Both the position numbers and the translations under genes were made by a program. From Thermomonas sp. (lineage in GTDB: Bacteria > Pseudomonadota > Gammaproteobacteria > Xanthomonadales > Xanthomonadaceae), in the NCBI GenBank assembly GCA_036405455.1, contig DASWXO010000008.1, forward strand, positions 2,731 to 66,730: a DNA stretch of 64,000 bases, in the 5' to 3' direction. Of the stretch, positions 19,648 through 60,576 are shown piece by piece; position 1 is the stretch's first letter; each line of letters begins with the position of its first letter. The notes beneath the pieces are model-generated. The model saw nothing but the letters and a program-made list of their open reading frames with translations. It was not told where the DNA came from and ran no database searches.

Positions 19648-22485
19648 ATGACCACCCTCGCTTCCGGCTACGACCCCAAGTCCTTCGAGTCCCGCCTCTA
19701 CCAGCAATGGGAGGCCAGCGGCGCGTTCGCGCCCCAGGGCGACGGCCCGGCCTACACCATCCTGCTGCCGCCGCCGAACGTCACCGGCACGCTGCACATG
19801 GGCCACGCGTTCCAGCACACGCTGCAGGACGCGCTGGTCCGCTACCACCGCATGCGCGGCTACCGCACCCTGTGGCAGATGGGCACCGACCACGCCGGCA
19901 TCGCCACCGAGATGGTGGTGAGCCGCAACCTCGCCATCGAGGGCAAGGGCGAGACCCGCGATTCGCTGGGCCGCGAGAAGTTCATCGAAAAAGTGTGGGA
20001 GTGGAAGCAGCACTCCGGCGACACCATCGAGCGGCAGATGCGCCGCCTCGGCGCGTCCGGTGACTGGTCGCGCAGCGTGTTCACCATGGACCCGATGGCC
20101 AGCGAGGCGATCACCGAGGCCTTCGTGCGCCTGCACGAGCAGGGCCTGGTCTACCGCGGCCAACGCCTGGTCAACTGGGACCCGGTGCTGAAGACCGCCA
20201 TCTCCGACCTCGAGGTGGTCAACGAGGAAGAGAACGGCCACCTGTGGTCGATCCGCTACCCGCTGGCCGACGGCGCCACGTTCGAATACGTCGAGCACGA
20301 CGCCGACGGCCACGAAGTCCTGCGCGAGGTGCGCGACTACGTGGTGGTGGCCACCACCCGCCCGGAAACCATGCTGGGCGACACCGCGGTGATGGTGCAC
20401 CCAGAGGATCCGCGCTACCTCGCCCTGCACGGCAAGGCCGTGGACCTGCCGCTGACCGGCCGCCGCATCCCGGTCATCACCGACGACTACGTGGACCGCG
20501 CGTTCGGCACCGGCGTGGTGAAGGTGACCCCGGCGCACGACTTCAACGACTACGCGGTCGGCCAGCGCCACGGCCTGCCGCTGATCAACGTGTTCACGGA
20601 CGAGGCGAAGGTCGTGTCCTCGCGCGAGGACATCGCGGCGCAGTACCGCGGCCTCGACCGCTTCGACGCGCGCAAGGCCATCGTGGCCGACCTCGAGGCC
20701 GCCGGCCTGCTGGTCGAGATCAAGCCGCACAAGCTGCAGGTGCCGCGCGGCGACCGCAGCGGGCAGGTGATCGAGCCGTTCCTCACCGACCAGTGGTTCG
20801 TGAAGATGGACGACCTGGCTCGCCGCGGCCTGGAACTCGTCGAATCGGGCGAAGTGAAGTTCGTCCCGGCGAACTGGATCAACACCTACCGCCACTGGCT
20901 GGAGAACATCCAGGACTGGACGATCAGCCGCCAGCTCTGGTGGGGCCACCGCATCCCGGCGTGGTTCGACGATGCCGGCAATGCCTACGTGGGCCGCAGC
21001 GAGGCCGAGGTGCGCGCCGCGCACGGGCTGGGCGACGCGCCCCTGCGCCAGGACCCGGACGTGCTGGAGACCTGGTTCTCCTCGGCGATGTTCCCGTTCA
21101 GCACGCAGGGCTGGCCGAACGAAGACCGGATGGCCGAGCTCGGCTTCGATGCCGCGCTGCCGACCTCGGTGCTGGTCACCGGCTTCGACATCATCTTCTT
21201 CTGGGTGGCGCGGATGATCATGATGACCGACCGCCTGGTCGGCCGCGTGCCGTTCCGCGACGTCTACATCACCGGCCTGGTCCGCGACAAGGATGGCCAG
21301 AAGATGTCGAAGTCGAAGGGCAACATCCTCGACCCGCTGGACATCATCGACGGCATCACCGCCGACGCGCTGGTCGCCAAGCGCACCACTGGGCTGATGC
21401 AGCCGAAGATGGCCGAAAAGATCGAGAAGGCCACGCGCAAGGAATTCCCGGACGGCATCAACCCGCACGGCGCCGACGCGCTGCGCTTCACCATGGCCGC
21501 GCTGGCCGGCCCGGGCCGCGACATCAAGTTCGACCTGGCCCGCGCCGAGGGCTACAAGAACTTCTGCAACAAGCTGTGGAATGCCACCCGCTTCGCGCTG
21601 ATGAACGTGGGCGACGCCCGCTTCGACGGCGCGCCGCAGCCGAAGACGGATGCGGAGAAGTGGATCCTCGCCCAGCTGGCGCACACCAGCGCGCAGGCGG
21701 AGGAACATTTCGGCAGCTACCGCTTCGACCTGCTGGCGCAGTGCCTGTACGAGTTCACCTGGAACCAGGTCTGCGACTGGTTCCTCGAGCTGGCCAAGCC
21801 GGCGCTCAACGGCGACGATGCCGAAGCCGCCTACAGCACGCGCCACACGCTGGCCCACGTGCTGGAAACCCTGCTGCGCCTGCTGCATCCGCTGATGCCG
21901 TTCGTGACGGAAGAACTCTGGCAGGCGGTGGCACCGAAGCTCGGCAAGTCGGGCAGCATCATGGTCCAGCCGTATCCCACCGCGTCCGCCCTCCAGGCCT
22001 ACCTGACGGACGAGTTCCGCGAAGCCGACGCCAGCATCGAGTGGCTGAAGGCGATGGCCACCGCGGTGCGTCGTATCCGCAGCGAACTCGGCGTGTCGCC
22101 GGCCAAGCAGGTGGCCCTGCTGGTGCGCGGCGGAAGCATCGAGGATGCGGCGCGCATCGCCCGCTTCGACGCGCAGCTGCGCTTCCTGTGCAAGCTGGAG
22201 CGGATCGAGGCGATCACCGGCGAGCCGCCGGCCGCCGCGCCGGCGGTGGTGGGCGAGCTGCAGCTCTTCGTGCCGCTGGAAGGCCTGGTCGACCTCGACG
22301 CCGAGCGCGCGCGCCTGGACAAGGAGCTGGCCAAGGTGGGCGCGGAAAAGGAGAAGAGCGAGGCCAAGCTGGCCAAGTTCGGCGCCGGCGTGCCGGCCGC
22401 GGTGGTGGACCAGGAGCGCCAGCGCCTGGCCGACTGGAGCACCAAGCTGGCCGCGCTGGCCGAACAGCGCGCGCGGCTGGGATAA
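19648..22485 (+). CDS. valS: Valine--tRNA ligase
   Basis: [13 protein letters not shown] (HIGH) and KMSKS motifs; C-terminal coiled coil. Confidence 0.99.
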
Positions 22486-22562
22486 GCCGCGCCTCGCCAC
22501 CGCCCGGCGCGCCATCGCCGCCGGGCGCACGCTCCATCAGGCGTCCCTACCCCCGGACATGC

Positions 22563-22586
22563 AAAAGCCCGCTTGCGCGGGCTTTG
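22563..22586. terminator. Bidirectional intrinsic terminator between valS and the tRNA 3' fragment
   Basis: aaaGCCCGC-ttgc-GCGGGCttt hairpin flanked by A and T tracts. Confidence 0.8.
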
Positions 22587-22595
22587 CGTGCGTCG

Positions 22596-22625
22596 CTGGT
22601 GGCTATGGGTGGACTCCATTATGAG
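22596..22625 (-). repeat. Island attachment site: displaced 3' fragment of tRNA-Met with a 16-bp internal deletion
   Basis: ctggtggctatgggtggactc (22596-22616) = 60427-60447; cattatgag (22617-22625) = 60464-60472. Confidence 0.9.
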
Positions 22626-22779
22626 GACGAGGCATCTGAAATACGCCAAAGAACGCCAATAGTCGTCAATGCTCATACAGAAGCCGCATTGAGTCCTTTC
22701 CAGTGGCAGATATTTCTATATTAATCATGATGTTATAGAGATTTCAGTTGTTTTACTCACAAACGTCAGTCCTGCCGGC

Positions 22780-25700
22780 TTGAAGCCAAGAATTTCGATT
22801 GAGGTGCAACGAAGTCGTTTAATGACTGCCACAGGGTATCTGTCCACTGGCGAGGAGCGTGACCCAAACACTACTTTTGGGCACATGGACGGAAGCGCAC
22901 CCGGAAAGGACCTCTTCTTCGCATTCGACCGGGCAGCCGTCCCGGACTCTTGGTGGCCAGATCTAAGTCGGACGCTTCTCGAACTCGGGGAAGCCATACC
23001 TCTCATTGATCGGCCAATCCTTGCGCCTCTGGCCGCCCATCTCGCCCAATACCAGTCGGCCTTGCGATTTCAGGCGGCAATGAACGCGCCGGTCGAACCG
23101 CCCAAAGAAATCCACGAACACCACCCAGGCAGCGCGACGCTGTTCCGATATCGGCATGGCCGATCAGCCGGCCTGGAGCGACTCACCAGCATTGGCCTGT
23201 GTGCCCTGCTAGAAGCAAGCGAGGCAGGCCGGGGACCTGCCAAACGGCTGTTATCGATCATCCGCGGCGCGATGGATAGCTCCAACTCCCCGCTGTCGGG
23301 CGCATTGGGTGCCATTTCCTCGATCCCTGAGCTTGTCCGGATTGTGGACACAGATGAACCCACAAGGAGGGCGCTGCCTCGGCATTTCCTCCAACTCTGG
23401 GATGCCTGGCTTCGAGACACCCTCTACCGCTGGATGTTCAAAGATCCTGAGCGGATGCGGCAGGCGCTGGAACCCTCGGCGCTAACGCCGCTGCTCGAGC
23501 ACCCAGCACTCCCGGTTGCGTTAGAACCGGGAAACCTCGAGGGCGGGACAACCCTGTCATGCAGCAATGCTTCTCCTTCCACCCACCCGTCAGACGAAAC
23601 GCCCACCAGCATCCGCTCAGGTCGAGCTGCATCCGATCTGTTGGAGAGGGAAAGCGCCGGCGACCTCATGGCATCGCCCGAGCAGCGGCTTCCCCGTCCC
23701 CTGGATGAGCGCTTGTGCCGCGAATCTGTACGAAGTGCGCGTGAGAATCAGGAGGACCCGGCCCGCGCGGAACCGTACGCCGCCCTGGCACTGATCCTCG
23801 CAGGAGCCGTCAGGGAAATCGATCTGCGTAATGTGGTGTGGGGCGATGAAGGAGCAGCTCGGCCGTTCGCTATCGACCCCTTACTACCCGTGCTTTACCG
23901 GAAACTGAAGCGTCCGGCCAGCGCGGTTGTGCCTCCAAAGGAGCTATCCACCTGGTGGCTGATGCCAATTACCGAGGTTATGGCTTGGCCCTTACCCCGT
24001 TCAGTGCATGCCGCGTTGTTAAGTCTATCGAGTGGAGCCCCGATTACCGGACAAGGCGTCCTTCCCATGCTGTCCGCATCACCAGCATCGCCGTACCGGA
24101 TGCTTGAAGTGATCTCGAGGCTAGTCCCCGAGGCCAAGGTCGGAGCCTTGGCGCCGCGCCTAGCACTTGCGTCGGAAATAACCGCCGCATTGGGTTCGGA
24201 AGTAGCCCAGCTCGTGATGGCGGACACCTTCGGCATGCCATCAGTTCCCGCCTACTACTCGTCGTTGCCTGAAGGAGAGTTGGCGACATTCGTCGCAGGG
24301 ATTCAGGCTCGCCGCTTCGGCGAACAGGTGCGCGCGCCCGATGGGCGCGATGGATACATGGGTTCGAGGCTGGTTCTCACTAATCAAGCCGCAATGCTGT
24401 GGCCAACCCAGCTCACGAGTGCCTTGAAGGCTGCCTCGCGGCAACCCGACGGCTGGCTGGAGCTATGGCACGCTCACCGGAATCATCTGGTGGCTGCCCT
24501 GTGCTCTGCGACCGGTCACCGTCCCGAGGATGCCTTAGGGCGAATCTTTCTGTGGGACGTCATCCCGGAATACGGCCTGATCATCCTCCAGGATAAACAG
24601 GTGGATGCGCTTCGTGCCACACGCATTGCAGCTACTGGTCGCCTGTGGCTGTCGGACTTACGCCGCTACCTCGATCGCCTGATCGAGATTGCAGCACGAC
24701 ACAAAGGCGAGCCTGCAGGTAACTTGGCTAACGCCATCCTGCGCAACGAAGAGCCGTTGTTCAGCGTCCTCACCCCCGAGAATCAAGTGGCACCCATGAC
24801 CGCAGGCACTCTGCGCAAAGGCATGCCTCAGGAATTGCAATCCGTCGACAACTTCTTTCGGCACAGGCTGAACCAGTGCCTGTTGGCGAGGCGGGTGGAC
24901 CCGGAATTGCGGCACGCGCAATTGGGATGGGTCGTGTCACCGGCGCATCTCCACGCGGACGTCTCTCCTCGTGCTCCGATCGACATGGGTCGGGACCTTG
25001 GGCCGTTCATCGATGACGTCCTCGTCCAGGATGGCTGGTATCTCCCCTCTGCGCGGAAGACGCGATGGACGTGGAATGGCGTTCCCATGCCTGCACCGGT
25101 GGACTGGGAGGCTGTCTTCACAACGCATAAGCGCCAACACGAAGAGAACATTAAGAGCATCAGGCTACGCCTGCGAGAACGCTGGAAGGAATTCGAGGGC
25201 CCCATCATGGCTCGGCTGGCAGACGCCTTCCAGGAGTTTTGCCCCCTCCTTCGGGTCGATATCGAGAAGAAGTGCCTTGTGCAAATTCATGGAGGAAAGG
25301 GTCCCGTTGAACTTGGCCCCGATCACCATGCGCTCATTTGCGATCGCGTGAAGCTGGGGGATCAGGAGCCATCCAGTGGCCTTGAATCGGTTGTTGCCCG
25401 AATTCTGCTGTACCGACTTGTGCGACGAGGTCGGGACAGGAATCTCGTTCTTGGCCCGATCCCCGGACGCCCCTTCTTGAGCGTGACATCGGAGCCATCG
25501 CCCTTCGTACCAGGGCTGGGCGCCGCGATTCGCCACGCGCACGCAATCCGGCAGGATCTCGAAACGAGGGCGAACGCGGGCTATGTCCGGGATCTGGGCC
25601 CGCTGACAACCTTCTCGATTCTGGCCTTCTCGATGTACAGGCGAGTGCCCTGGGCCCAGGCCGCTCTCCAGGCCGCCCGAACGGCCATGCGCGGACAGCA

Positions 25701-28035
25701 ACGGCGACATGTCCTCCGGGTAGACGCCCGAGTGGATGGTAATCGCATGCACATGGTGTTCAGCGGGGTCCCCGCGGTCCTGCTGGCAAGGCGAAAGCGA
25801 CATGCCCCCACATCCCCTGCGCCTTCGCGGGAGACGCTGGACGAGTGGGCGTGCTCCCACCTTAGCCATAACGTCATGTGGGGTGGACGTGCACTTGCCT
25901 CGGTGCAGATTGAGAGCGTCCTCGCCGCCGCAGCCCGAATCGAACTGTCAGGCATCGAGCGGTTGCTTCTTCAGATGGGAACACAGACTGCCGCTGAATC
26001 TCCGGCGCGCTGTATTGCACGAGACGACAACTGGCCTGTCCTCACGTCCGATGGCACGTCCAGCGAAAAGGATGCCAATGGTGTCGAGCCACCCACAACA
26101 GAGACGACACCGTCCAAGCCTGCTTTGGTACACAAGCAGCAAGACTTTGACCGTTTTATGGGCTTTCTCAACAAGCGAACGTTTGCGCAATCCCGGGCGA
26201 AAAAGTCGACCAAACGAAAAAATGCAACAGATGGTCAGTACGACTGGCGGCGTGCACTCCGTGCGTCTCTAGTGACCTTCCGCGACGAGATCGGAAGCAA
26301 TTCAAACCTGGCGCTATTGGTTTCGTATGTGCTGGACCATCTTCGCTATGGCAGCGAGGATGGCCATCGCCTTTCCCACAACTCATTGCGTCGCGAAGTC
26401 TCGCAGATTGGCCGAGCCTTGCTCATCCTGCTCGCCGATCGCAGCCTCCTCAGCCTGCCCTCGGAGGAACTGCGACGCCTGTATAGAGACATCCTACTTT
26501 CCAAATCCACCGATGCAAGGCCATACGCGTTCGAAGAACTCCATCGATTTCATCGCTACTTGATGCGGGTGCATGCACGGCCAGCCGTGGACATGGCCGA
26601 GCTCTCGCTTCTCGCTGGATCGCGGAAAATTGGCATCGAGCCTGGCTTGCTTACGCCTGCCGAACGCCAGGCTATCGTCGAAGAACTGCAGGCCGATTTC
26701 GAGAATGAGGCGAAGCGCGCCGATGCCGATCCCGACTTCCTGCGCCTTGCGCAATTGCAGAAGCTCTACTTCCTGATTATGGATGCTGCGGGTATTCGTC
26801 CAGGATCGACCTACGGGCTGACTCTTGGGGATATCCACTTTCTTGGCGATGCGGGTGATTTCGTCCATGTCCGGACGGGCGACTACGGAGAAGCCAAAAC
26901 CACGACGTCCATGGGTTTCGTGCGACTTGAAGGCGAGCTTTGGGCTCGGCACCGCGCATGGGTGGAACACTGGATCGCGGAGCAGCGCAAGATCCACCCC
27001 GACGGTTGGCGGGAGTTGCCGCTTTTCGGCACCATGACCGGGCACCGCGTCCGGGTTCACGAACACCATCTCACAGGTCGCATCAATGCCCTGCTGAAGT
27101 GGGCATGCGGTTATCGCGACGCGAGTTGCTACTGGTTGAGGAAGACTCGTATCTCGGAACGCTACCAGTCACTAGCATCTAAGGGGGAGACGTCGGCTCG
27201 CGAGCTTTACCGAACCATGGTGGCGTCCGGGCATGCCTGGATCCAGATTGCCGTTGAGCGGTACATCAATGATCCCAGCTGCCTCCTGTTTGTAGATCAG
27301 AGAACCGGCTGCGAAGCTCCACGCTCTCTGCTGCTGGCCATGTCGGGGCTCGACGACGGGCCGCTAGATGCGGCATGGCACCGGGCCGGTCGTGATCGGG
27401 CAACCAGATTGGGCATCGTGCTTGATCGTGTGCAGGCAAATTTCGTTTCCACCCCAGCCGGTCACCGGACCGCTGCACCTGCGCTTCGTCGCTTCAAGGC
27501 CTTAAAACCCGCGCACGTGGACGCCTTTGCACGTGCGATGCAACAACACAGGGACTTGGCAGAAGCGACTTTGGCCGCAGGGATTACCGGGCAACAGGCG
27601 CTCCAGCTCCAAAATGCTGCGTCTGACATGCTTGTTCGGCGCGGCAGCACCCTGTGGAGGCTTACAGGCACAACTGGCACGCGTTATGTCCTGCCGGCAC
27701 CGCGCAAGATCGCAGGTAGCGAGAAATGGTTTGATCTTCTGACGCACGAACCATCGGATACGTTCATGGCCATCGCAGAATCGTGGATGGGGCAACCCCA
27801 TGCAGAACGCCTGCATGGCGAAGGCACCATGATGCTGGTCGAGCCCACCCATCTACCCGCCCTTCACGCCTTGCTGGAGGAAACTGGCCTTGAAATGAAG
27901 GTGGTGACCCAAAACGGCCACCACCTGTTGAAAGCTCCTCTTCAAGCCAAATTCACAAAAGGGCACAGCGCAGCGCTGCGCTGGGTTCTCGCCATCATCT
28001 GGCTCCACGCACACGCGACGACAGTGAGCGATTAG
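22780..28035 (+). CDS. Giant (~1750 aa) protein with two tyrosine-recombinase-like catalytic domains
   Basis: Domain 1: TGHRPED...DKQ...NFFRH...LGW. Domain 2: AGIRPGS...AKT...YWLRKT...SGHAWIQIAVERY. Start uncertain (TTG 22780, ATG 22822 or ATG 22885). Confidence 0.75.
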   Translation: MKPRISIEVQRSRLMTATGYLSTGEERDPNTTFGHMDGSAPGKDLFFAFDRAAVPDSWWPDLSRTLLELGEAIPLIDRPILAPLAAHLAQYQSALRFQAAMNAPVEPPKEIHEHHPGSATLFRYRHGRSAGLERLTSIGLCALLEASEAGRGPAKRLLSIIRGAMDSSNSPLSGALGAISSIPELVRIVDTDEPTRRALPRHFLQLWDAWLRDTLYRWMFKDPERMRQALEPSALTPLLEHPALPVALEPGNLEGGTTLSCSNASPSTHPSDETPTSIRSGRAASDLLERESAGDLMASPEQRLPRPLDERLCRESVRSARENQEDPARAEPYAALALILAGAVREIDLRNVVWGDEGAARPFAIDPLLPVLYRKLKRPASAVVPPKELSTWWLMPITEVMAWPLPRSVHAALLSLSSGAPITGQGVLPMLSASPASPYRMLEVISRLVPEAKVGALAPRLALASEITAALGSEVAQLVMADTFGMPSVPAYYSSLPEGELATFVAGIQARRFGEQVRAPDGRDGYMGSRLVLTNQAAMLWPTQLTSALKAASRQPDGWLELWHAHRNHLVAALCSATGHRPEDALGRIFLWDVIPEYGLIILQDKQVDALRATRIAATGRLWLSDLRRYLDRLIEIAARHKGEPAGNLANAILRNEEPLFSVLTPENQVAPMTAGTLRKGMPQELQSVDNFFRHRLNQCLLARRVDPELRHAQLGWVVSPAHLHADVSPRAPIDMGRDLGPFIDDVLVQDGWYLPSARKTRWTWNGVPMPAPVDWEAVFTTHKRQHEENIKSIRLRLRERWKEFEGPIMARLADAFQEFCPLLRVDIEKKCLVQIHGGKGPVELGPDHHALICDRVKLGDQEPSSGLESVVARILLYRLVRRGRDRNLVLGPIPGRPFLSVTSEPSPFVPGLGAAIRHAHAIRQDLETRANAGYVRDLGPLTTFSILAFSMYRRVPWAQAALQAARTAMRGQQRRHVLRVDARVDGNRMHMVFSGVPAVLLARRKRHAPTSPAPSRETLDEWACSHLSHNVMWGGRALASVQIESVLAAAARIELSGIERLLLQMGTQTAAESPARCIARDDNWPVLTSDGTSSEKDANGVEPPTTETTPSKPALVHKQQDFDRFMGFLNKRTFAQSRAKKSTKRKNATDGQYDWRRALRASLVTFRDEIGSNSNLALLVSYVLDHLRYGSEDGHRLSHNSLRREVSQIGRALLILLADRSLLSLPSEELRRLYRDILLSKSTDARPYAFEELHRFHRYLMRVHARPAVDMAELSLLAGSRKIGIEPGLLTPAERQAIVEELQADFENEAKRADADPDFLRLAQLQKLYFLIMDAAGIRPGSTYGLTLGDIHFLGDAGDFVHVRTGDYGEAKTTTSMGFVRLEGELWARHRAWVEHWIAEQRKIHPDGWRELPLFGTMTGHRVRVHEHHLTGRINALLKWACGYRDASCYWLRKTRISERYQSLASKGETSARELYRTMVASGHAWIQIAVERYINDPSCLLFVDQRTGCEAPRSLLLAMSGLDDGPLDAAWHRAGRDRATRLGIVLDRVQANFVSTPAGHRTAAPALRRFKALKPAHVDAFARAMQQHRDLAEATLAAGITGQQALQLQNAASDMLVRRGSTLWRLTGTTGTRYVLPAPRKIAGSEKWFDLLTHEPSDTFMAIAESWMGQPHAERLHGEGTMMLVEPTHLPALHALLEETGLEMKVVTQNGHHLLKAPLQAKFTKGHSAALRWVLAIIWLHAHATTVSD

Positions 28036-28745
28036 AGCGCAAGCTGCGTATGCAGCTTGCCACCCGGTAGCGCGCGGTAGACGTTCTTGCTAACAAGCCT
28101 GACCGGGCCGGTAAAGGTGGTCGAGCCTTTCACGACCATATCGACGAGGACATCGATGCCGTGCGGATAATCGATGGTCGCAAGCTCAAGTAAGGTCAGG
28201 TCGCCGAGCAGCAGGACGTTGGCATCCTGCCCCGGTTTGCAAACCCCGATGGTGCTCACCCTGAGATGCCTCTGTTCGTCGTCAGGCTTTTTTGGTTCTG
28301 TAAAGGCCGATAGTTTCGGGTGGGGCAATTCGATCGTCTTGCTCGCAACGTGCAACGACGCCGTCAGTTCGCTTTTGTCGTATGTCGTGGCGAGCGCCCG
28401 AAGCAGGTCGATGCAATGCGTATTCTTCACGGCTTGGGTAAGCGCCAGCGGCGGCGTGAGCATCGCGTTTACTTCCAACTCCTTTGCAGTCAAAGCGAGT
28501 TCGTTCGCGATGCTTTCCGTAACGTCAAAGAGATCCTCGTCACTGCAGACTTCCATGACGATTTCTCCGCCCCACAACGTGGGCTCACCAAGCCGTGAGC
28601 CATAGCATTCGACCAATGCTCGTAAAAGCTTGGGAACATGTCCCAGCTTGTCCGTGGCGTCCTCGTCGAGGGTCAGAGGTTCGCCTGGGTTCGCGTTATC
28701 GGCGAAGGTCAGGCGAATTGACTGAGGCAATTTGAGACTATTCAT
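28032..28745 (-). CDS. Hypothetical protein (237 aa)
   Basis: Open frame from MNSLKLPQS with AGGAAG RBS; convergent 4-bp overlap with the giant gene; no family recognised. Confidence 0.7.
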   Translation of the reverse strand: MNSLKLPQSIRLTFADNANPGEPLTLDEDATDKLGHVPKLLRALVECYGSRLGEPTLWGGEIVMEVCSDEDLFDVTESIANELALTAKELEVNAMLTPPLALTQAVKNTHCIDLLRALATTYDKSELTASLHVASKTIELPHPKLSAFTEPKKPDDEQRHLRVSTIGVCKPGQDANVLLLGDLTLLELATIDYPHGIDVLVDMVVKGSTTFTGPVRLVSKNVYRALPGGKLHTQLAL

Positions 28746-29516
28746 GTTTGCTTCCTGATGTGAGGTTTGAGGTGCAGGGCGGCGTAACGAAGGACGCTTG
28801 CCGTCTCCGTCGAAATCGTGAATTCGTGTGCTCCGGCCCTGCGCAGGAGCAAAGTCGAAGGCGCTCCACTTGGGCCTAGTAAGGCCAGCGTGGAATCGTG
28901 GGTATTGGCATCGCCCAGGACGCTCCACTGGCGACTGCGATCGGGGAGTAGATTGCCGCTCGCTTATCCAGCAGCGTCGAGGCGTGGCAGTGCTAAACGA
29001 CTAAACCTGAGGCAGAAGCCTCGTCAGCGGGCATCAATTGCGTATGACCAGGCGCCGCCTATAGCTCATAGATTCGCAGGTCGCGGCAAGATGGTAGGAC
29101 GCACATGCCTGAATGGCGCGGCCAAAAAGACGTATGCGCGCTCTGCCTTTTGTGGCAGCTGGGGGTAGAACCACCCCGTCGTCTTAAATGTAGACTTAAG
29201 TGAAATTTACAGAAGTGGACGGAGACGTCCCGTCTCAGGGGGCTGCAGTGGCAGCCGTGTGAGATTTATTGACCAGAAGGCCATTGTCAAGTGGCTTGTA
29301 TCCTTACCCTCGAACCACAGATGTGCTTAGCGTCTATCCGGGACCCTGTGTAGCGTGATCCCGCTGTGCACGCTTAGCGCACCAGGACCGCCGACAACAA
29401 CGGTGCCTGCGGCCTCGTTCGCTCCCTAATCTACTGCGCGTATCGCTCACTGGTCGGATTCTCCAAACCCTTGATCTCATTTGCGTAATGGACCCACCAG
29501 ATTTCAGTAGAAGCTG

Positions 29517-29753
29517 TTAGTTGCTGCTGTGCGCGTCGCACCTTTCAAGCAGCGAGATCGCACCTAAGACACACGGCTCGTGGTCTTCATCCTTGTAGAC
29601 CTGCCAGAAACCAGGCCCAGTCACCTGTCTGCTAAGGACGGCTTTGTCCAGCCGGCGGGGTTCGCTGGCGGTCCTGTCTTGCGCGTTCACCGATGCCGGC
29701 ACCGCAAGCAGGAGGAGCAATACCAGTAAAGCGACATAAGAACGTCCCTGCAC
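29517..29753 (-). pseudogene. Probable N-terminal fragment of a TraB/GumN-family exported protein
   Basis: Signal peptide followed by GPGFWQVYKDEDHEPCVLGAISLL, which resembles the GPGLWKV...LWILGTLSPLP start of GumN/TraB proteins (recalled, not searched), then an early stop. Confidence 0.45.
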
Positions 29754-30117
29754 TTCGAGGGATCCATCCGGGCTGGGGGGGGGGGCTCGAGCGCCGGTTT
29801 TGGCACCCTGTCTCGCCCAACTTTACTGGCGACATGGCGCTGTGGCACCCAGCCGGGGCAACTTCGACTGCTGAGCGATGCCTTTGGCGGCACTTCCCGA
29901 TCCGATGCAATCCACCGGGCAGTGCTTAGCTGCCTGGTCATGCGTGCCGCCGAAGCAGCTTCAGGCCCGACGACGGGGCGGGGGCGATGACCCCGATGAT
30001 CTGCTCCTTGGTGAATCGAATCTTGCGCATGTACGTCCTCTCTGGCTGACGGACTCTAAATCGCCCCGCTACTGAAGGCGGGGGGACATCGGACCCGCTA
30101 CCAGTGAAGTGAGCGCC

Positions 30118-32118
30118 TCAACTCCAGCGGCCTCCTTCAATCGCTCCCAAACGATCGCGGCTCAAAGATGCTGCCGCCTCCAACGCATCGAAGTAGCGCT
30201 CAAGATTGTCCAAGGAACGTTGCATGTTGTCGTTCCAGGCCTCGTTCTTGACGTCGGTGGCTTCGTCCGCGTCGAACGCGCGGTAAGGCTCGGAGGGGAC
30301 ATCGACCGCGTCGAATCCGAAAGCGCGCAGCGGCCGATTCGCGGAATGGATGAAGTCGCTGGACAGCGACGCATAGGCCCGCACCTTTGCGACCAACGCA
30401 TCGTGGCTGGAATTGGCCATCTTTCGCCCGAGCGAGATCCCGGCCCTCATCAAGAATCCTTCGTCGCCGAAGCTCGCCCACGACATCGCTACTTCCTGGA
30501 ACTGTTTGAGCATGGCCGACCGAATGTCCATGCACATCCGGAAGTCTTCCCTCCAGCCTTTGTCGATGCCGAGGAGCGCCCCGGTGAGCGATACTTTCCG
30601 GAAATCGATGATCGTCGACCATTCCTTCGTTTCGGAATGAATCAAGCAGACGATCTCCGCGATCTCCTCGGGCGACTCCGAAGTCGCCAAGGTGACTGCA
30701 TTCTGGAGCAACGCCTCGGCCTTCTGATTCTTCATGTCGAACAACTGGCACATCTGCAGGATCCGCTCGCGCGACTTCGGATCGATCGCTCCGTCGCGGG
30801 TCGCGAGGAAGGCAGCGTCGACGACCCAGGCGACCTGGCGCTTTTGATCGGCCAGGGCGGAAAGAACAGCCGCCATGTCCACGAGGACCGGGGGGCGGAT
30901 CCTTTCGCAACGCTGCTCGCTGGCATCGACGTCTAGAACACGCGCGAGCGATGCGAGGAAACTCCGCTGCGCGGCGTTGGCTTCACCGTCGATCGCGACA
31001 GCAACGAGGGCGTCCACAAAGGACTGTCGTTCGGGTACGGGGACGTCGAGCGCCAGCAGGGCGTGCGACTTCAGCGGCACATGCTGCGCCAGCAATTCGT
31101 CGATCGTAAGCGTGCGCGCAGCGGCAGTCTGCACCGCGGGGGCCTGCGGCACCGGATCCAGCGTGAGCAGGTCACGCACCAGCGTTATGCCGGCGACGAT
31201 TTCCTTGGCGAGGTTCGCCAGGTCATATTCGATCTCCGGCTCCTGCACTAAGGCGCCGGCGGCCTTCCTGCAGATCTCGGCGCGCAGATCGCTCGGTTCC
31301 GAGCGCGTGATCCGCATGGCGTGCGGAATCTCGTTGGTCAGATCCATGATGCAACCGAAAGCGCGCCCGGCAACGAGACCCGACACGCGCGCAGGGTCCA
31401 GCGAGCGCTCGCCGATGCCGATTCGGGTGATCTCGCCGAATCGTTCAACGCCCGTGGACAGGACGTCTTCCGCCAACTGCGTGGCAAACTCCCCCAGCGT
31501 TATTCGCCTGCCCGGCGACATCCCCAGCCCGGTGAACGCGAGTTCCAGGTCATGGCTCTGTTCCAGCCGCTCCATGGCGTGGCCATGTTCGTCGAACTTA
31601 TCGGCGTACTCGAAGGCGGCCTTCACGACACGCAGGAGTTCGGGTAAGGCGAGGTAGTCTTCGCGCACCTTGATGCTGTCGCGCCAGTCGATGACGCGGA
31701 CATCCTGTGCAAGCCTGCCGACCTTTCGCGTCTGCTCGAGCACCAGCCCGCCCAGGCGATGTTGCGTGTGGGCCAAGTGCGCGAGGTTGTTCCGGACCAC
31801 TGCGATGGCACGCGCCGTAAACAGCCCCTGCTTCTGCATGCCGGCCAGGCACTGCCACGCCATGAGCTGGACTTCGACAAGGTCTGCGACCGTCGCCCGC
31901 TCCAACGATGCGGTCTTGCCGCTGAACCTGTACCAAAGGCGCAGGAAAAAGCCGGCGCCGCGGAACTGCTCCAGCCTGTCCTCTGACAGCCCCGCGAGGC
32001 GCGACGCATCGGTCGCGAGTTGATCGGCAGCGGCTTGGCTCAGCTCGCCTTCGGCAAGGAGATCAACGACGCGAGGATCGAGCGCTTCGACGTCGGCAAG
32101 GAGTGCGTTGGATTCCAT
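30118..32118 (-). CDS. Hypothetical 666-aa protein with two TerB-like repeats in the C-terminal half
   Basis: FVDALVAVAIDGEANAAQRSFLASLARVL and WVVDAAFLATRDGAIDPKSRERILQMCQLF resemble TerB helical repeats; starts 3 bp after the upstream stop. Confidence 0.7.
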   Translation of the reverse strand: MESNALLADVEALDPRVVDLLAEGELSQAAADQLATDASRLAGLSEDRLEQFRGAGFFLRLWYRFSGKTASLERATVADLVEVQLMAWQCLAGMQKQGLFTARAIAVVRNNLAHLAHTQHRLGGLVLEQTRKVGRLAQDVRVIDWRDSIKVREDYLALPELLRVVKAAFEYADKFDEHGHAMERLEQSHDLELAFTGLGMSPGRRITLGEFATQLAEDVLSTGVERFGEITRIGIGERSLDPARVSGLVAGRAFGCIMDLTNEIPHAMRITRSEPSDLRAEICRKAAGALVQEPEIEYDLANLAKEIVAGITLVRDLLTLDPVPQAPAVQTAAARTLTIDELLAQHVPLKSHALLALDVPVPERQSFVDALVAVAIDGEANAAQRSFLASLARVLDVDASEQRCERIRPPVLVDMAAVLSALADQKRQVAWVVDAAFLATRDGAIDPKSRERILQMCQLFDMKNQKAEALLQNAVTLATSESPEEIAEIVCLIHSETKEWSTIIDFRKVSLTGALLGIDKGWREDFRMCMDIRSAMLKQFQEVAMSWASFGDEGFLMRAGISLGRKMANSSHDALVAKVRAYASLSSDFIHSANRPLRAFGFDAVDVPSEPYRAFDADEATDVKNEAWNDNMQRSLDNLERYFDALEAAASLSRDRLGAIEGGRWS

Positions 32119-32121
32119 GAT

Positions 32122-33534
32122 TCAGATCTTTTCGATGGCGAGTTGAAGTGCGTCCAGCTGAGTCTCGATGCCTTCCATTTGTGCGGAAAACTGCCGCTCG
32201 GATTGGGCGACGCCGACGCGAAATGACACGAACGCCCGCTCCGACATTGCGATCAGCGCGGTGGACTCGACCAGTACATGGTGCGATCGCACGAGTCCTT
32301 CGGCTGTCGCGACCGTTTCGAGGTAGGGCGCTTCGATGTGGTTGTCGATGGCGATCGTCGTGGCGAGCGACACGATCAATGCCCCGACGACACTCCCGAC
32401 ATAGACGCCGACCGGCCCAGCTGGCGCGCCGATCGCGCCCCCGATAGCGGAACCTACGACAGCGCTGGCGCTCTGCAGCAGGTTCTTGCCGGTCCGTGTT
32501 TCCAGCTCGTCCATCGTCATGCGGCCGGCCGCAACGAGGACAAGACACTCGGCCAGGTCCACTGCGCTGATGGCAAGGCCCGCCACGCCACCCGAAACCA
32601 GTGCGGTCTGGAACGCGCTGCCTGCAAACAACTGCGGCAGCGTGCGCGCGGCGATGCTAACCGTCGCTGTCGCGGCGCCAGCCTTGAGCGCGGCGTCCCC
32701 AGCCGCGATGGCCGTGTTCCACAGGATGTATTTCGTTGCGTCGATTTCGCTCAGCTTTCCATCCCGGACCAGCTTGAGGCACTGCACGGTATTGACGGTT
32801 CCTGCCACGACCGTCGCGATCATCGCAGCCGATTTGGCGGCATGCCACGACTGCTTCGCAGTGGAAGCGTCGAGATAGCGGCCCTCTGTCTTGCGTCGAA
32901 GAGCTTCACCTTCTTCCTTGCCGGCCCCCAGCGCCTTGGCGTCTTCCAGGGGCAGCTCCGCAGACTGGACGCCGTCACGCTCGAGGTGTCCCGTCACCTT
33001 CTGTTCCACCTCGCGCGCGGCGTCCGCAACGTGGGGCCGTTTCCCCGCGTTCTCGATCTGCGTCTTGCGCGCGGCCTGTCGGACGGATTCCACCTGGTCC
33101 GAGGGAACGACATGCTGTTCGGTTTCGTGGTATTTCGGGATGCCGTCGCGTGTTTCCCGCAATGCCTTCTGCGTGTCTTCCGCCGTGCGGTAGTACTTGA
33201 GTTGCGCACGCGTATCGGGCGACTTTCCATCGCGCAGGAGAATGTCGGTGGTCGAGTCGATGCTGGAGAGCGTCGATCCCGGATGCTGGGCGGTGTAAGC
33301 CCGCACCCGCTTGTCTTTCAGGATCGCTTCGAGATTGAACGTCTCGGCGTGGTGCACCTCGGCTGCGAATCCGGCCTTGTGGGGCAAGCCTTGCCCGGTG
33401 CTAGCGATCCGTTGGAATTGCGTGTTGGCGAGCCGAATCTCGTCGACCATTCGGCCCACCTCCGCTGACGCACGCTCCCCCCAGATATGACACACGTCCA
33501 CCGCGCGATAGCGCTTCGCCCCATTCTGCTTCAT
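32122..33534 (-). CDS. Hypothetical 470-aa protein: putative PD-(D/E)xK-like N-terminus plus glycine-zipper hydrophobic region and coiled-coil tail
   Basis: AAEVHH...TDILL...AQLKYY motif; GSAIGGAIGAPAGPVGVYVGSVVG; start MKQNG chosen from the GGGGA RBS. Confidence 0.7.
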   Translation of the reverse strand: MKQNGAKRYRAVDVCHIWGERASAEVGRMVDEIRLANTQFQRIASTGQGLPHKAGFAAEVHHAETFNLEAILKDKRVRAYTAQHPGSTLSSIDSTTDILLRDGKSPDTRAQLKYYRTAEDTQKALRETRDGIPKYHETEQHVVPSDQVESVRQAARKTQIENAGKRPHVADAAREVEQKVTGHLERDGVQSAELPLEDAKALGAGKEEGEALRRKTEGRYLDASTAKQSWHAAKSAAMIATVVAGTVNTVQCLKLVRDGKLSEIDATKYILWNTAIAAGDAALKAGAATATVSIAARTLPQLFAGSAFQTALVSGGVAGLAISAVDLAECLVLVAAGRMTMDELETRTGKNLLQSASAVVGSAIGGAIGAPAGPVGVYVGSVVGALIVSLATTIAIDNHIEAPYLETVATAEGLVRSHHVLVESTALIAMSERAFVSFRVGVAQSERQFSAQMEGIETQLDALQLAIEKI

Positions 33535-33935
33535 CGACTTCCCCTGTTCCCGGCAAAACAACTGCACATTCAAGCGCTCGCCCGCGGGCCGCGGAGATTG
33601 CGAATCGCCTCCTGCGTCATCGCGATTACAACCCACAAACCAATAAATGCGAAAATGTCCTTCATCATGTTGCTCTCCGAACCCGCTTAGGAACGGCGAA
33701 TATCGTCGAAGGCCATCTCACTACGCGAGACGACGACCCTGGTCACACCGGACGTCCGACCCGATCTGTCCAATCCGAACTCCGTGAAGGGCGCTTTCAC
33801 CATAGGAAAGACCCTCACGGGTCGGCGGCCGACTGGATGACTTGGATTTCGTTGACGTAGCACCGATCCTACGGGAAAGTTTATCCAGCGTGGAGCAGAA
33901 TGTCCGTTTTGGGTCGATACCCGCCTTCCAAGGCA

Positions 33936-36158: not shown

Positions 36159-37028
36159 CTATCTGCGAAAGGTCAACACGTTGTCGCCATTGGGCTTAGA
36201 CGGCGACCACGGTCGATGGGGATGGCGGCCGTGCAAGCGCAGGTCATTCTCTGCGCTGGCCTGGTCGTACGCCCGAACCAGACTTCCAACCGCCATCAGC
36301 GGCTTGCCCCCATGGCGCTTCCACTGGCCGGACAACAGCGATCGCATCGCAACCGCCCCATCAGGCCAGTCACACCCCAGACGTTCCAGCGCGCCATGCA
36401 GCCGCGCGAGCCCCACCAGCTCATGGCCCAAGGCATACAGGTGAGCACCCCCCTCCGCGTAGCACCACAGCTTGCCCACGTCATGGGTGAGAGCGTGAGC
36501 GATCCCCACATCTCGTTCCATGCCTGTCAATCGCGGCGTGTCCCGAACGTTCTCTGCCATCTCGATTGAATGCACCGCCAAACCACCGGCATACGCATGG
36601 TGATGCGCCTTCGAGGCCTGGCACTGCCAGAAGTTTCGGTACACAGCCGGCATGGAAAACACGTTGCTGAGAAAGCGCCTCAGCGGCTCGGATTCACAGG
36701 CATCCACCACATCGCGACAGCGGAACACGATGTCGTCGCGCTCGCCGAACTGGTCCGGAATCAGGTTGAACACATCCAGCTCCGGCCTCGGCTGGATGCG
36801 GGTCACCACATGCGTTTCGCCCTCCGAGGTTTCCAGCGGCATCGCGCAAACCTCGGCCTTCAGTACCCGCTCGGTATCCTGGGCCATCGTCGGCAGCCAG
36901 GACCAAGCATCCATCTGACCGGCTTCCTGCAGGATCCTGAGGTGGCTTGCCCCCGAGTCGTAGGTGTGGACCTGCTCGACAATGGCGTTGATCAGGATCG
37001 TGCGGACATAGGGAATCTCGACTTCCAT
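36159..37028 (-). CDS. HD-domain phosphohydrolase (YhaM / TraI_2-MobH-like)
   Basis: HHHAYAGGLAVHSIEMAE and ALTHDVGK motifs; AAGGAG RBS. Confidence 0.82.
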   Translation of the reverse strand: MEVEIPYVRTILINAIVEQVHTYDSGASHLRILQEAGQMDAWSWLPTMAQDTERVLKAEVCAMPLETSEGETHVVTRIQPRPELDVFNLIPDQFGERDDIVFRCRDVVDACESEPLRRFLSNVFSMPAVYRNFWQCQASKAHHHAYAGGLAVHSIEMAENVRDTPRLTGMERDVGIAHALTHDVGKLWCYAEGGAHLYALGHELVGLARLHGALERLGCDWPDGAVAMRSLLSGQWKRHGGKPLMAVGSLVRAYDQASAENDLRLHGRHPHRPWSPSKPNGDNVLTFRR

Positions 37029-37043
37029 TTCGTACTCCTTGGT

Positions 37044-38363
37044 TTAGGCAACCTTCGAGGCGAGCAACTGATTCAGGGCACTGCGGAGCTGTTCAGCGGA
37101 CATCCCCGACAGCTGTTCGGGCGTGATCGACTGGAGCTCGGCAGGCGCCTTCTGTCCGTGGGCGCTGAGCAGCCCGGCGATCGCCAGCCCATCCTGACGC
37201 GCGAGGTTGGGGACGAAGCGCGAGTACACCGTGAACAACATCTGCGTATTGCTGTGCCCCATGAGTCGGGCGATCCACTCCGGACTCTCGCCCGAAGCCA
37301 ACATCAGCGTCGCCGTGGTGTGCCGCGTCTGGTAGGGACGACGCTTCTCCAATTCCAGAAAGCGCAGCAGCGGATACCAGATCCGGTTGGCGAAGTTGTG
37401 CGCATCGATCGGATTGCCTTCCCGGCTGCAGAACACGTATTCCACATCCGGATCCCGCTTCTCCCACTGCCGCTCCAACGCCTCCCTGACCATCGGCAGC
37501 ATCGGGATGTCCCGGATCGAGCTTTCGGTCTTGGCGTTCTCTTCGGACTCGCCTGCCGAGAACACCTCCCGGATCCGGATAACCCCTTGTTCGAAGTCGA
37601 CGTACTTCCACTTCAGTCCGTTGATTTCGCCGGTGCGCATGCCGGTGAAGAACCGACAGGTAACGTAGTTCCGAAAGTCCGGGCGAATGGTGTTGCGAAC
37701 CCTCTCCACCTCCGCCAGCGAGAACGGCTTGACGTCGGAGCGCCTCCCCTTCAGCCGTTTCACCCCCTTGAAGATGTCCGGCATCCCGAAGCGTTCGCTG
37801 GCTTCCGTCATGCACTGCCGCAGCAGACCCATCGTGCGGTTGACGGTCGTAGGCGACAGCTTGGCACTGGAGCGACCAGGAAGATCAGCCAACCTGGCGC
37901 GGAAGCTCAGCACATCGGCCTTGGTGATCGAATCGACCCGCCGGTTCCCGAACTCCGCCAACAGATGCGCGTCGAACGTCGCGTCCACGCTTTCACGATG
38001 CTGGCGCCGCCACTGCGGTGCCATTTCTTTGCGCCAAGTCACAGAAAAGTCTGAGAACGTCGGAGTACCGAGGTGGCTCTGGACGGTTGGCTCAAGGACT
38101 CCACCCTTCACAACGGGATACGCGCCGCTAGTGGGGCTCGGCAGATCCGCGAACTGCGCGGCTCTAGGGCTGCCCGGAAACGTAGCGCCGTAATCGAACT
38201 GCCCCTGCTTGATCTCCTTGGAGACTCTGTTCATCAGCGACTGGACACGCCGTCGATTCTCCGCCGTATCTGGCAGGGCCGTCTGCTCTCTGCAGCGGAC
38301 TCCCCGATAGTAGAAATCCAAAAACAGCAGGCCGTTGTCCTTGCGGGCGCGGACCTTAGCCAT
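37044..38363 (-). CDS. int: Tyrosine integrase with N-terminal arm-DNA-binding (DUF3596-like) domain
   Basis: MAKVRARKDNGLLFLDFYYRGVRCRE; TGMRTGE, AKT, YQTRHT, MGHSNTQMLFTVY (full R-K-x-R-H-Y set). Confidence 0.92.
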   Translation of the reverse strand: MAKVRARKDNGLLFLDFYYRGVRCREQTALPDTAENRRRVQSLMNRVSKEIKQGQFDYGATFPGSPRAAQFADLPSPTSGAYPVVKGGVLEPTVQSHLGTPTFSDFSVTWRKEMAPQWRRQHRESVDATFDAHLLAEFGNRRVDSITKADVLSFRARLADLPGRSSAKLSPTTVNRTMGLLRQCMTEASERFGMPDIFKGVKRLKGRRSDVKPFSLAEVERVRNTIRPDFRNYVTCRFFTGMRTGEINGLKWKYVDFEQGVIRIREVFSAGESEENAKTESSIRDIPMLPMVREALERQWEKRDPDVEYVFCSREGNPIDAHNFANRIWYPLLRFLELEKRRPYQTRHTTATLMLASGESPEWIARLMGHSNTQMLFTVYSRFVPNLARQDGLAIAGLLSAHGQKAPAELQSITPEQLSGMSAEQLRSALNQLLASKVA

Positions 38364-38622
38364 GGGCCAACCCGCCGTTGGCCATCGGGATGCCCATGCC
38401 CGCGGTCGGCGCCATGCGGCTACCCGGTGCCTTGCTCGCGGAGAACTTGCCAATGTCCCGTTCGATCGTCTCGCGGATGAAAAGGAGCTTCCGGCCGCCA
38501 AACGGGCGGATGTAGTGCACGCCCTCCAGCAGCACGGCGTCCTTCAGGCGGGTACGGATGGTCCTGGAGTCGTAGTGGATGATCTCGGCGAGCTGATCGG
38601 TGGTAAGGTACGTCTGGTTCAT
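38356..38622 (-). CDS. Putative excisionase / recombination directionality factor (winged helix)
   Basis: MNQTYLTTDQLAEIIHYDSRTIR...GVHYIRPFGGRKLLF; AAGGAG RBS; overlaps the int start. Confidence 0.7.
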   Translation of the reverse strand: MNQTYLTTDQLAEIIHYDSRTIRTRLKDAVLLEGVHYIRPFGGRKLLFIRETIERDIGKFSASKAPGSRMAPTAGMGIPMANGGLAHG

Positions 38623-60427: not shown

Positions 60428-60504
60428 TGGTGGCTATGGGTGGACTCGAACCACCGACCCCAGCATTATGAGTGCTGTGCTCTAACCGGCTGAGCTACAT
60501 AGCC
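60428..60504 (-). tRNA. tRNA-Met (CAT), elongator type
   Basis: GGCTATGTAGCTCAG...CTCATAA...GGTTCGAGTCC...AGCCACCA, 77 nt, encoded CCA, G1-C72; resembles E. coli elongator tRNA-Met. Confidence 0.96.
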
Positions 60505-60527: not shown

Positions 60528-60576
60528 GACCCCGACATTATGAGTGCTGTGCTCTAACCGGCTGAGCTACATAGCC
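60528..60576 (-). pseudogene. Duplicated 5' half of tRNA-Met
   Basis: 60536-60576 is identical to 60464-60504 (41 bp); extends to 49 bp with 2 mismatches; lacks the T arm and 3' acceptor strand. Confidence 0.85.

Follow-up and report, generated by a model that had tools for sequence, protein, structure and literature searches.

What kind of enzyme is encoded by the very large gene at one end of a defence island in Thermomonas sp.? The window analysed here, a stretch of 64,000 nucleotides (nt) from contig DASWXO010000008.1 (assembly GCA_036405455.1, positions 2,731 to 66,730), carries an island in a tRNA-Met gene. A gene just inside its left end, hereafter the giant, had been read in a preliminary description as encoding a protein of about 1,750 amino acids (aa) with two tandem tyrosine recombinase (YR) domains, one of them lacking the catalytic tyrosine. 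In the textbook picture, a YR is a single-domain enzyme of 300-450 aa that acts within a homo- or hetero-tetramer. We found that the giant contains three YR-derived catalytic units in one chain and that, together with a conserved partner gene, it forms the fixed end-module of a family of islands in tRNA-Met and tRNA-Arg genes of Xanthomonadales.

All open reading frame (ORF) and motif coordinates given previously proved exact on re-reading. The frame 22780..28035 (+ strand) runs for 1,751 codons from a TTG without interruption. Its first recombinase-like region carries R581 at nt 24520 (in TGHRPED), K606 at nt 24595 (DKQ), NFFRH at aa 691-695 and LGW at aa 715-717, and the second carries R1340 at nt 26797, K1373 at nt 26896, YWLRK at aa 1451-1455, H1485 at nt 27232 and Y1495 at nt 27262 (residue numbers throughout count from the TTG at 22780). 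The length needs a small correction. Three observations make the ATG at 22885 (M36) almost certainly the true start: the length of the homologues (about 1,716 aa), the conservation of this ATG, and a non-coding block, likewise conserved, upstream of it. The giant gene proper is then 22885..28035 (+ strand), with 1,716 aa, and the 105 bp from the TTG at 22780 to the ATG at 22885 are part of the non-coding block.

Long spurious ORFs are abundant in GC-rich genomes, and the source assembly is a metagenome-assembled genome (MAG) in 186 contigs, either of which could have produced a spurious long frame or a frameshift joining neighbouring integrase genes. The probability of such an artefact is negligible: hundreds of homologues of the same length occur in isolates and MAGs of many genera, AlphaFold2 (AF2) models are confident (predicted local distance difference test score (pLDDT) 83-85) and the catalytic residues are strictly conserved. 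A protein homologue search gave 75 clusters (91-25% identity), nearly all of 1,707-1,766 aa and aligning across 98% of the query. With the N-terminal 765 residues as query, an exhaustive HMMER search gave 490 clusters (50% identity) at E <= 1e-3, of which 161 were at E <= 1e-30. As the full-length members of the family are nearly all 1,650-1,880 aa long (a few reach ~2,090 aa), the giant is one conserved long chain and not a frameshift fusion, and the short match examined as a possible natural split version (P0253, 330 aa) is a gene cut by a contig end. The giant is single-copy in the source genome and patchy in its host family (13 of 301 genomes; 2 of 10 in the genus). The copies of Pfam, NCBIfam and PADLOC that we searched hold no model for the family, which is therefore missed by those domain scans.

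The chain divides into the following segments, all on the + strand.

aa 36-250, 22885..23529: N-terminal helical domain (AF2 model), the least conserved of all segments
aa ~251-295: disordered linker after the N-terminal domain (AF2 model)
aa ~296-520, 23665..24339: TR0, a YR-derived catalytic unit (hhalign, and secondary-structure order as in a YR catalytic domain)
aa ~521-770, 24340..25089: TR1, the first of the two domains described previously, a YR-derived catalytic unit without Tyr (hhalign, Foldseek)
aa ~771-1090, 25090..26049: MID, a helical/beta region with weak similarity to the YR core-binding domain
aa ~1091-1130: disordered linker after MID
aa ~1131-1520, 26170..27339: CB2 and TR2, the second domain described previously, a core-binding plus catalytic YR module (Foldseek, hhalign, and Pfam in distant members)
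aa 1521-1751, 27340..28032: C-terminal domain (AF2 model)

Both regions named in the preliminary description are therefore YR-derived, but the count of two falls short, as the '~580 aa' of N terminus left unassigned there hold a third recombinase-like unit at aa ~296-520.

Because Pfam and NCBIfam were blind to the window protein, the reading of its motifs was tested by fold and profile methods, under which it held up. AF2 models were made for two overlapping pieces from alignments cut from 30-35 loci, and reached pLDDT 84.5 and a predicted template modelling score (pTM) of 0.71 for residues 760-1751, and pLDDT 82.8 and pTM 0.74 for residues 36-800. When the C-terminal model was compared with the PDB using Foldseek, the best 50 matches were all YRs with probability 1.00, including XerH (2.5e-5), integron IntI, XerA, lambda Int, Cre and Tn1549 Int, over alignments of ~350 columns with target-normalised template modelling (TM) scores of 0.5-0.63. 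The N-terminal model gave only E values of 0.09 or higher, yet integrases were the only matches with probability > 0.5 in two libraries: in the PDB, XerA at 0.96 and the catalytic domain of an integrase from methicillin-resistant Staphylococcus aureus at 0.97 (target TM 0.56), and in BFVD phage integrases at more than 15 of the first 50 places. Of the two recombinase folds that the preliminary description expected of such a model, the C-terminal one is thus clear and the N-terminal integrase matches are weak in E value.

Profile comparisons with hhalign used a family alignment of 189 sequences (Neff 6-8) and a YR profile made from the source genome's XerC/D-type and phage-type integrases plus the P4-type family, with 30 column-shuffled versions of each segment as nulls. 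An earlier 40-sequence alignment had given matches in register but non-significant, and the comparison became informative only with 189 sequences:

TR2 (aa 1290-1520): E 4e-10, probability 96.7%, 138 columns, score 71.5 versus null 11.8 +/- 2.2
TR0 (aa 296-520): E 5.3e-5, probability 67%, 124 columns, score 38.6 versus null 10.6 +/- 1.6
TR1 (aa 520-770): E 6.6e-3, probability 5.7%, 122 columns, score 26.4 versus null 12.8 +/- 2.0
N-terminal domain, as control: E 0.57, probability 0.1%, 21 columns, score 11.7

Relative to the shuffled nulls, z was about 17 for TR0 and about 7 for TR1. All three units match the same profile positions (135-274) in the same register, which places R345, R581 and R1340 on the box I Arg, R460, R694 and R1454 on the box II Arg, and LGW717 and GH1485 on the G-H position. 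The units also resemble each other (TR1 versus TR2, E = 1.6e-3; TR0 versus TR2, E = 6.7e-4). In TR0 the recognizable motifs are a box-I-like LAGAVREIDL (R345), R460, D482 and Y492/Y493, and the hairpin Lys is not conserved; in TR1 they are R581, K606, N691-x-x-R694-H695 and W717. By hhalign, the N-terminal domain has no similarity to the YR profile (E = 0.57) and the C-terminal domain (aa 1521-1751) none that is significant. None of the best 150 HMMER matches, all of them family members, was intermediate between TR0/TR1 and ordinary integrases.

Pfam itself recognizes TR2 in distant members of the family, where PF00589 matches at the positions corresponding to aa 1325-1459 of the window protein (P0259, 2.6e-9 and 37.5 bits against a cut-off of 27.1; P0280, 2.5e-5; P0256, 6e-4). 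In each half of the protein, PF00589 is also the sole Pfam family with matches in at least two members, although both sets of matches are weak. Model, profile and distant Pfam matches agree on TR2 with CB2, which is a complete core-binding plus catalytic YR module; the same methods support a catalytic fold for TR0 and TR1 more weakly. Within MID, similarity to the YR profile is limited to positions 53-150 (E ~1e-3), running up to a box-I-like AFSxYR (R954). Sliding-window comparison likewise gave a weak core-binding-like signal at aa ~756-1045 (E ~1e-3) that ends at AFSxYR, and the piece aa 900-1130 scored a weak 15.4 versus a shuffled null of 9.8 +/- 1.5. MID may possibly, and tentatively, be a degenerate fourth YR unit.

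If these are recombinase units, which of them could be catalytic? Across the 189 diverse homologues, the residues conserved at >= 93% are almost only YR catalytic positions:

TR0: R460, D482 and Y493 (189/189)
TR1: G528, R581, P582, D605, K606, R615, N691, R694, Q714, G716 and W/H717
TR2: R1340, D1351, K1373, R1454, G1484 and Y1495; also H1485 and Y/H1451

R581, R694, R1340 and R1454 are present in 189 of 189 sequences, as is Y493, with K606, K1373 and Y1495 each in 188 and H1485 in 175; the motif residues are thus no product of chance. Position 717 is W in 147 sequences and H in 42, and both residues are allowed at the equivalent YR position. The most conserved segment is TR1 (0.47, versus 0.44 for TR2 and 0.32 for the N terminus). 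TR2 has the full R-K-(Y/H)-R-H-Y set, each residue in 175-189 of the 189 sequences, and with CB2 it has both the fold and the catalytic set of the YR superfamily. TR1 has R, K, R and W/H but, in the 189 homologues, no alignment column with a conserved Tyr beyond LGW, which bears out the earlier claim that this domain lacks one. TR0 has only the box II Arg and the Tyr, and in the whole subfamily found in tRNA-Arg genes T, S, N, A or V stands in place of its box I Arg (the alignment there was checked). The giant thus has three YR-derived units, two invariant tyrosines and two complete pockets, in a pattern in which TR1 is a pocket without a nucleophile and TR0, directly N-terminal to it, a nucleophile with an incomplete pocket.

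Since the Tyr-less pocket of TR1 adjoins the pocket-poor Tyr of TR0, a composite active site is the simplest reading. In Flp, the YR pocket (R, K, H, R, W) is completed by a tyrosine from another, identical protomer. The conservation pattern suggests that Y493 of TR0 may complete the TR1 pocket in a Flp-like manner, except that here the tyrosine would come from another domain of one and the same chain. The idea in the preliminary description that one half 'receives Tyr in cis' is therefore plausible, with Y493 of TR0 as the candidate donor.

Where the giant sits bears on what it might do. Host DNA in the window is ~72% G+C, and the island, from ~22.6 to ~60.4 kb, has 58-66%. The gene to its left is host valS (19648..22485), as judged from codon-position G+C and Pfam. 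The features that define the island and its giant-bearing end are as follows.

22597..22628, no strand assigned: displaced tRNA-Met 3' fragment, the attR-type island end (TGGTGGCTATGGGTGGACTC plus CATTATGAG, without the 16 nt that lie between these pieces in the tRNA)
22629..22884, + strand: conserved non-coding leader, from the att core to the start of the giant (19-locus alignment; pairwise with Thermomonas)
28032..28745, - strand: conserved partner gene, about 237 aa from an internal ATG; the ORF is open to 28928
37044..38501, - strand: conventional P4-type integrase (Arm-DNA-bind_2 plus Phage_integrase; PF00589 E = 2e-22, PF12167 E = 1e-21)
60428..60504, - strand: intact tRNA-Met (CAT) gene, the attL-type island end (ARAGORN, repeat analysis)

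The fragment at 22597-22628 matches the 3' end and anticodon loop of the tRNA-Met gene at 60428-60504, and its exact 20-mer recurs only at 60428-60447, the 3' end of that gene; with the tRNA-Met repeat at both ends, the island is 38 kb long. No intact tRNA was found by ARAGORN in the region upstream of the giant. The preliminary description asked whether homologues, too, lie at tRNA attachment sites, and they do. The same tRNA-Met fragment precedes the giant in 19 distinct loci, and an exact 17-mer of the tRNA-Met 3' end is present in 22 of 64. In ~25 of the 40 loci that were aligned, a tRNA-end match precedes the start of the giant by 270-320 bp; those with an upstream tRNA-Met end belong to Thermomonas, Luteimonas, Dyella, Dokdonella and Rhodanobacter or to metagenomes. 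In Thermomonas sp. LB-4 the island occupies the same chromosomal site. Loci of a distant subfamily (~25% identity) carry, equally far upstream, the 3' half of a tRNA-Arg(CCG), and a branch of ~1,800-aa proteins also has tRNA-Arg-like end fragments upstream. Wherever the upstream region is readable, the giant starts ~290 bp inside a displaced tRNA 3' fragment and reads inward, in islands of 30-75 kb.

The leader between fragment and gene carries a GATGAAnTACAT-like motif at 22636-22648 and, at about 22826-22887, a block of the form TGTCAC-N19-21-TGACCC-N-AGCACTA-N12-16-ATG found in 19 loci, which includes an imperfect GTCAC/GTGAC inverted repeat. A sigma-70 consensus scan of the leader gave no match. 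The block is probably a promoter/operator with a very short leader.

At its other end the giant meets the partner gene, which is convergent to it, their stop codons overlapping by 4 nt. A partner of ~240 aa follows the giant in convergent orientation in ~20 loci and is co-oriented in the distant subfamily, and by hhalign these convergent and co-oriented partners are homologues (probability 95.4%, E = 1.8e-8); the 245-aa neighbour of the giant in the ~1,800-aa branch has no detectable similarity to the partner. The partner belongs to no known family in Pfam or PADLOC, and PADLOC gave nothing for giant or partner at E <= 0.1. There are faint hints of an OB-fold. Similarity among islands stops after the partner gene, and their contents beyond it differ.

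Taken overall, the best explanation, and one we regard as probable though far from settled, is that the giant is a single-chain, multi-module YR acting at the island end. It would then be an active DNA breaking-rejoining enzyme on island-end DNA, cleaving and rejoining at or near the island end or attP. One chain would supply two working active sites, TR2 alone and the TR1 pocket with the TR0 tyrosine, the latter by Flp-like donation inside the chain, which would make the giant a built-in asymmetric pseudo-dimer that works like a fused form of the multi-gene recombinase sets compared below. In the life cycle of the island it would contribute to circularisation, transfer, resolution or cargo capture beside, and not in place of, the P4-type integrase. 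Candidate processes for the giant in general are exclusion, cargo capture, resolution, a second way of circularisation, and nicking for mobilisation or replication; among the explanations, a recombination role at the island end ranks first. A more specific version can be held only tentatively and is rather doubtful in full: that these proteins are a self-contained class of recombinase with a split TR0/TR1 site, an autonomous TR2 and a partner, asymmetric, possibly exchanging single strands (copy-out-like), acting close to attP and providing a second route of mobility or cargo capture independent of the P4-type integrase.

Several results weigh against the island-end recombinase. Pfam and NCBIfam find no integrase domain in the window protein, whole or in pieces (PF00589 none at E <= 1; the protein falls below its gathering threshold), and sequence and profile searches of the PDB gave no match for it. 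The evidence for a YR fold in TR1 is moderate, with an hhalign probability of only 5.7%, and the Foldseek matches of the N-terminal model were reported without the part of the model that aligned, with E values of 0.2 or higher for TR1. Terminal inverted or direct repeats around giant and partner (22480-30200) are at chance level only. With no terminal repeats, the pair is treated as a backbone end-module, and the possibility that it forms an independent nested transposon was rejected. Every resolvable giant-bearing island (12 or more) has a P4-type integrase, which can explain integration into the tRNA gene, and of 24 genomes with this P4-type family 13 are without the giant. A role of the giant in integration or excision is therefore not required and can only be conjectured.

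The P4-type integrase deserves a closer look, because the preliminary description implied that the giant is the island's integrase, a view that is now weakened. Islands with both ends on one contig span 31-75 kb and contain one such integrase each, by the intact tRNA or mid-island. Those in tRNA-Met are from Dyella (67 kb), L007 (75 kb), L010 (31 kb), L004 (~38 kb) and the window (38 kb), and those in tRNA-Arg with a P4-type integrase are G308, G290, G270, G111, G161, G310 and G311. The family is present in 11 of the 13 giant-bearing genomes (of 301), the other two being fragmented assemblies. As it accompanies the giant in 11 of 13 yet occurs in 13 genomes without it, the giant depends on this type of island, and the integrase does not depend on the giant. 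Since it is found in all resolvable islands and also alone, the giant is probably not the sole integrase. Nor does the giant qualify as a P4-type integrase: it is 1,716 aa long with no Arm-DNA-bind match, and the gene at 37044-38501 has what it lacks on both counts. TR2 shares the superfamily fold with the P4-type enzymes, and both are encoded in the same tRNA islands, but the latter have about 440 aa with one catalytic and one arm-binding domain. The absence of any Pfam match for the giant, against 2e-22 for the island's ordinary integrase with PF00589, shows that the giant is strongly diverged.

Could the giant nevertheless be the true tRNA-specific integrase/excisionase, the P4-type enzyme having come from a separate co-resident or ancestral element? 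In two subfamilies with different target tRNAs it keeps a fixed place, ~290 bp away from the att core, and reads inward, which would fit, as would the strict conservation of catalytic residues and a layout like that of the gin and SE recombinase operons at an element end. This is nonetheless improbable, given that an integrase of the tRNA-targeting kind is in all of the at least 12 resolvable islands, sometimes adjoining the intact tRNA, and occurs in 13 genomes without the giant. No internal att copy points to two tandem elements, and tandem islands were rejected on that ground.

The constant presence of the P4-type integrase, with integration thereby covered, sits more easily with an enzyme that only nicks. 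The giant could be a YR-fold nickase/relaxase that nicks an origin of transfer (oriT) or of replication in the leader by attP and starts conjugative mobilisation or rolling-circle replication, with P4-type Int and Xis carrying out excision and integration. The conserved non-coding block directly upstream of the giant and the partner's faint hints of an OB-fold, which would be consistent with binding of single-stranded DNA, fit this view, and the island, which has no type IV secretion system, would need mobilisation. A precedent is MpsA of SGI1, reported to be an atypical YR-like relaxase with oriT upstream of its gene (PMC6414798). We consider this unlikely, if somewhat less so than the true-integrase alternative: known YR-like relaxases are small and single-domain, and three units with two tyrosines would go unexplained; no oriT-like inverted repeat was identified beyond the short imperfect GTCAC/GTGAC pair; and the family is absent from the 72,556 plasmids searched, as it is from the viral contigs searched.

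A role in defence or exclusion has to be considered as well, because the island is a defence island (type 2 BREX, with toxin-antitoxin and candidate defence genes in the earlier annotation). Islands of this kind often encode large multidomain proteins of unknown function, and the distribution of the giant is patchy and accessory. The giant would then be cargo or a competition factor that cleaves or occupies att sites or DNA of phages or of rivals for the same tRNA. PADLOC recognizes nothing in the giant, however, and cargo varies among islands while the giant keeps its position, orientation and leader by att down to ~25% identity and across two tRNAs. It therefore behaves as a backbone gene and not as cargo, which makes this role about as improbable as that of sole tRNA-specific integrase and leaves the recombinase acting at the island end as the preferred account.

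How does the giant relate to known systems? Several YRs also occur together in RIT elements (RitA, RitB, RitC) and in Tn554 (TnpA, TnpB, TnpC), which requires a third, non-YR protein. In these, as in GInt and SE elements, the YRs are separate genes whose division of labour is unsolved. Going by analogy, the multi-gene recombinase sets of GInt, SE, RIT and Tn554 appear to be the closest analogues of the giant. RIT and Tn554 resemble it in having several YR units in one mobile element and differ in their separate genes, hosts and targets; RITs are, moreover, flanked by inverted repeats, unlike giant and partner. The likeness to GInt and SE drawn here is one of layout.

GInt islands encode GinA, GinB and GinC, all YR-type and one without catalytic residues, plus a small, non-YR, essential GinD (Bardaji et al. 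2017, PMC5385486). Such a module forms the boundary, on one side, of an island of 2.5-70 kb inserted site-specifically, with variable cargo right after the partner (PMC5385486). The giant shares with it three YR-type units, one of them catalytically deficient, a small non-YR partner and a position at one island end, and in the giant's islands, too, cargo directly follows the partner. It differs in being one ORF with a convergent partner (co-oriented in the distant subfamily) instead of four separate co-oriented genes in an operon, and in that its islands lie in tRNA genes and carry a P4-type integrase, whereas GInts insert by protein-coding genes and have no other integrase. SE elements (strand-biased circularising integrative elements) have the order IntA (a catalytic YR), Tfp (a YR fold without RHRY), a large catalytic IntB and the auxiliary Srap, a set that lies beside attL at the left end of the element (Idola et al. 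2023, PMC10214605). Srap is a small, essential, non-YR protein, and the elements occur mainly in Vibrionales, Pseudomonadales and Alteromonadales and not in tRNA genes (PMC10214605). The order TR0 (Tyr), TR1 (no Tyr), TR2 (Tyr) and partner parallels IntA, Tfp, IntB and Srap. In SEs, however, the genes are separate and translationally coupled and there is no further integrase, in contrast to the giant's islands. Tfp also lacks the entire RHRY set, whereas TR1, likewise in the middle, keeps both Arg, Lys and W/H and lacks only the Tyr.

The preliminary description knew of no characterised protein with this architecture, and none is described in the literature that we searched on multi-domain and fused tyrosine recombinases, where several YR units in one polypeptide do not appear. 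The giant is thus a member of an established enzyme superfamily, with a likeness to multi-YR modules of mobile elements, and its single-chain architecture has no counterpart in that literature. With the units covalently joined, their stoichiometry and order are set by the chain, and a TR1 pocket without Tyr beside a TR0 Tyr without a pocket yields a concrete mutational prediction on how catalytic and 'non-catalytic' YR units cooperate. In a widespread family of defence islands borne by tRNA genes, with type 2 BREX in the present case, the giant is also a marker of one end and so offers a handle for locating island boundaries and for studying island movement or cargo gain. A single-chain asymmetric recombinase could, in addition, interest genome engineers.

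The cargo of the window's island is a type 2 BREX (Pgl) system within 39021-60177, between the island integrase and the tRNA gene, an unusual placement in that an integrase normally adjoins the tRNA. Its genes are as follows.

39021-43235: PglW
50542-54213: PglY/BrxC
54177-56798: PglZ
56795-58102: BrxD
58099-60177: BrxHI

Beside the P4-type integrase lies a gene for a 289-aa protein (36159-37028, - strand) with a weak TraI_2 match (HD-domain, MOBH-relaxase-like; E = 5e-4). It is conserved beside the integrase in L008 and L010 and, from this arrangement, may be a mobilisation gene of the island backbone. Past the partner gene, at 30118-33636 (- strand), adjacent ORFs of 666 and 504 aa, which the earlier annotation had flagged as a candidate new defence pair, have no Pfam or PADLOC match.

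Further observations concern the island ends. Displaced tRNA-Met fragments (L001-L041) always keep the 3'-terminal ~20 nt and the (C/G)ATTATGAG of the anticodon loop, with internal deletions of at least 8 sizes (0-17 nt) whose right edge is fixed at CATTATGAG and whose left edge is variable. An identical 16-nt deletion is present in the window, L007 and L020, whose giants are 37-57% identical. The deletions look like a one-sided series beside the crossover core, for which repeated nick-and-resect or island-borne att variants are candidates. In the ~1,800-aa branch, L065 has, upstream of the giant, two partial copies of the tRNA-Arg 3' end at 9540-9780, one beginning TGGCGCGCCCGGCAGGAT and the other reading TGGCGCGCCCGGCA followed directly by CGCCTTCGGAGGG; from this second copy part of the sequence, the T-arm, is again absent, much as in the tRNA-Met fragments with their deletions. 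At the other end of the window's island, a 96%-identical second copy of the tRNA-Met 5' part (through the anticodon loop) lies at 60528-60576, 23 nt past the intact gene and outside the island, and may be a trace of earlier integrations at this tRNA. In Thermomonas sp. LB-4 (L001 8171-9750), ~1.6 kb of extra G+C-rich DNA, absent from the window, separates valS from the att fragment, so the host flank differs though the island site is the same; by eye, the frame it contains looks like a gene of sensor/diguanylate-cyclase type. In Dokdonella soli (L006 326-9496), an open frame of 3,057 codons, which may be spurious in such G+C-rich DNA, lies upstream of the giant on the same strand.

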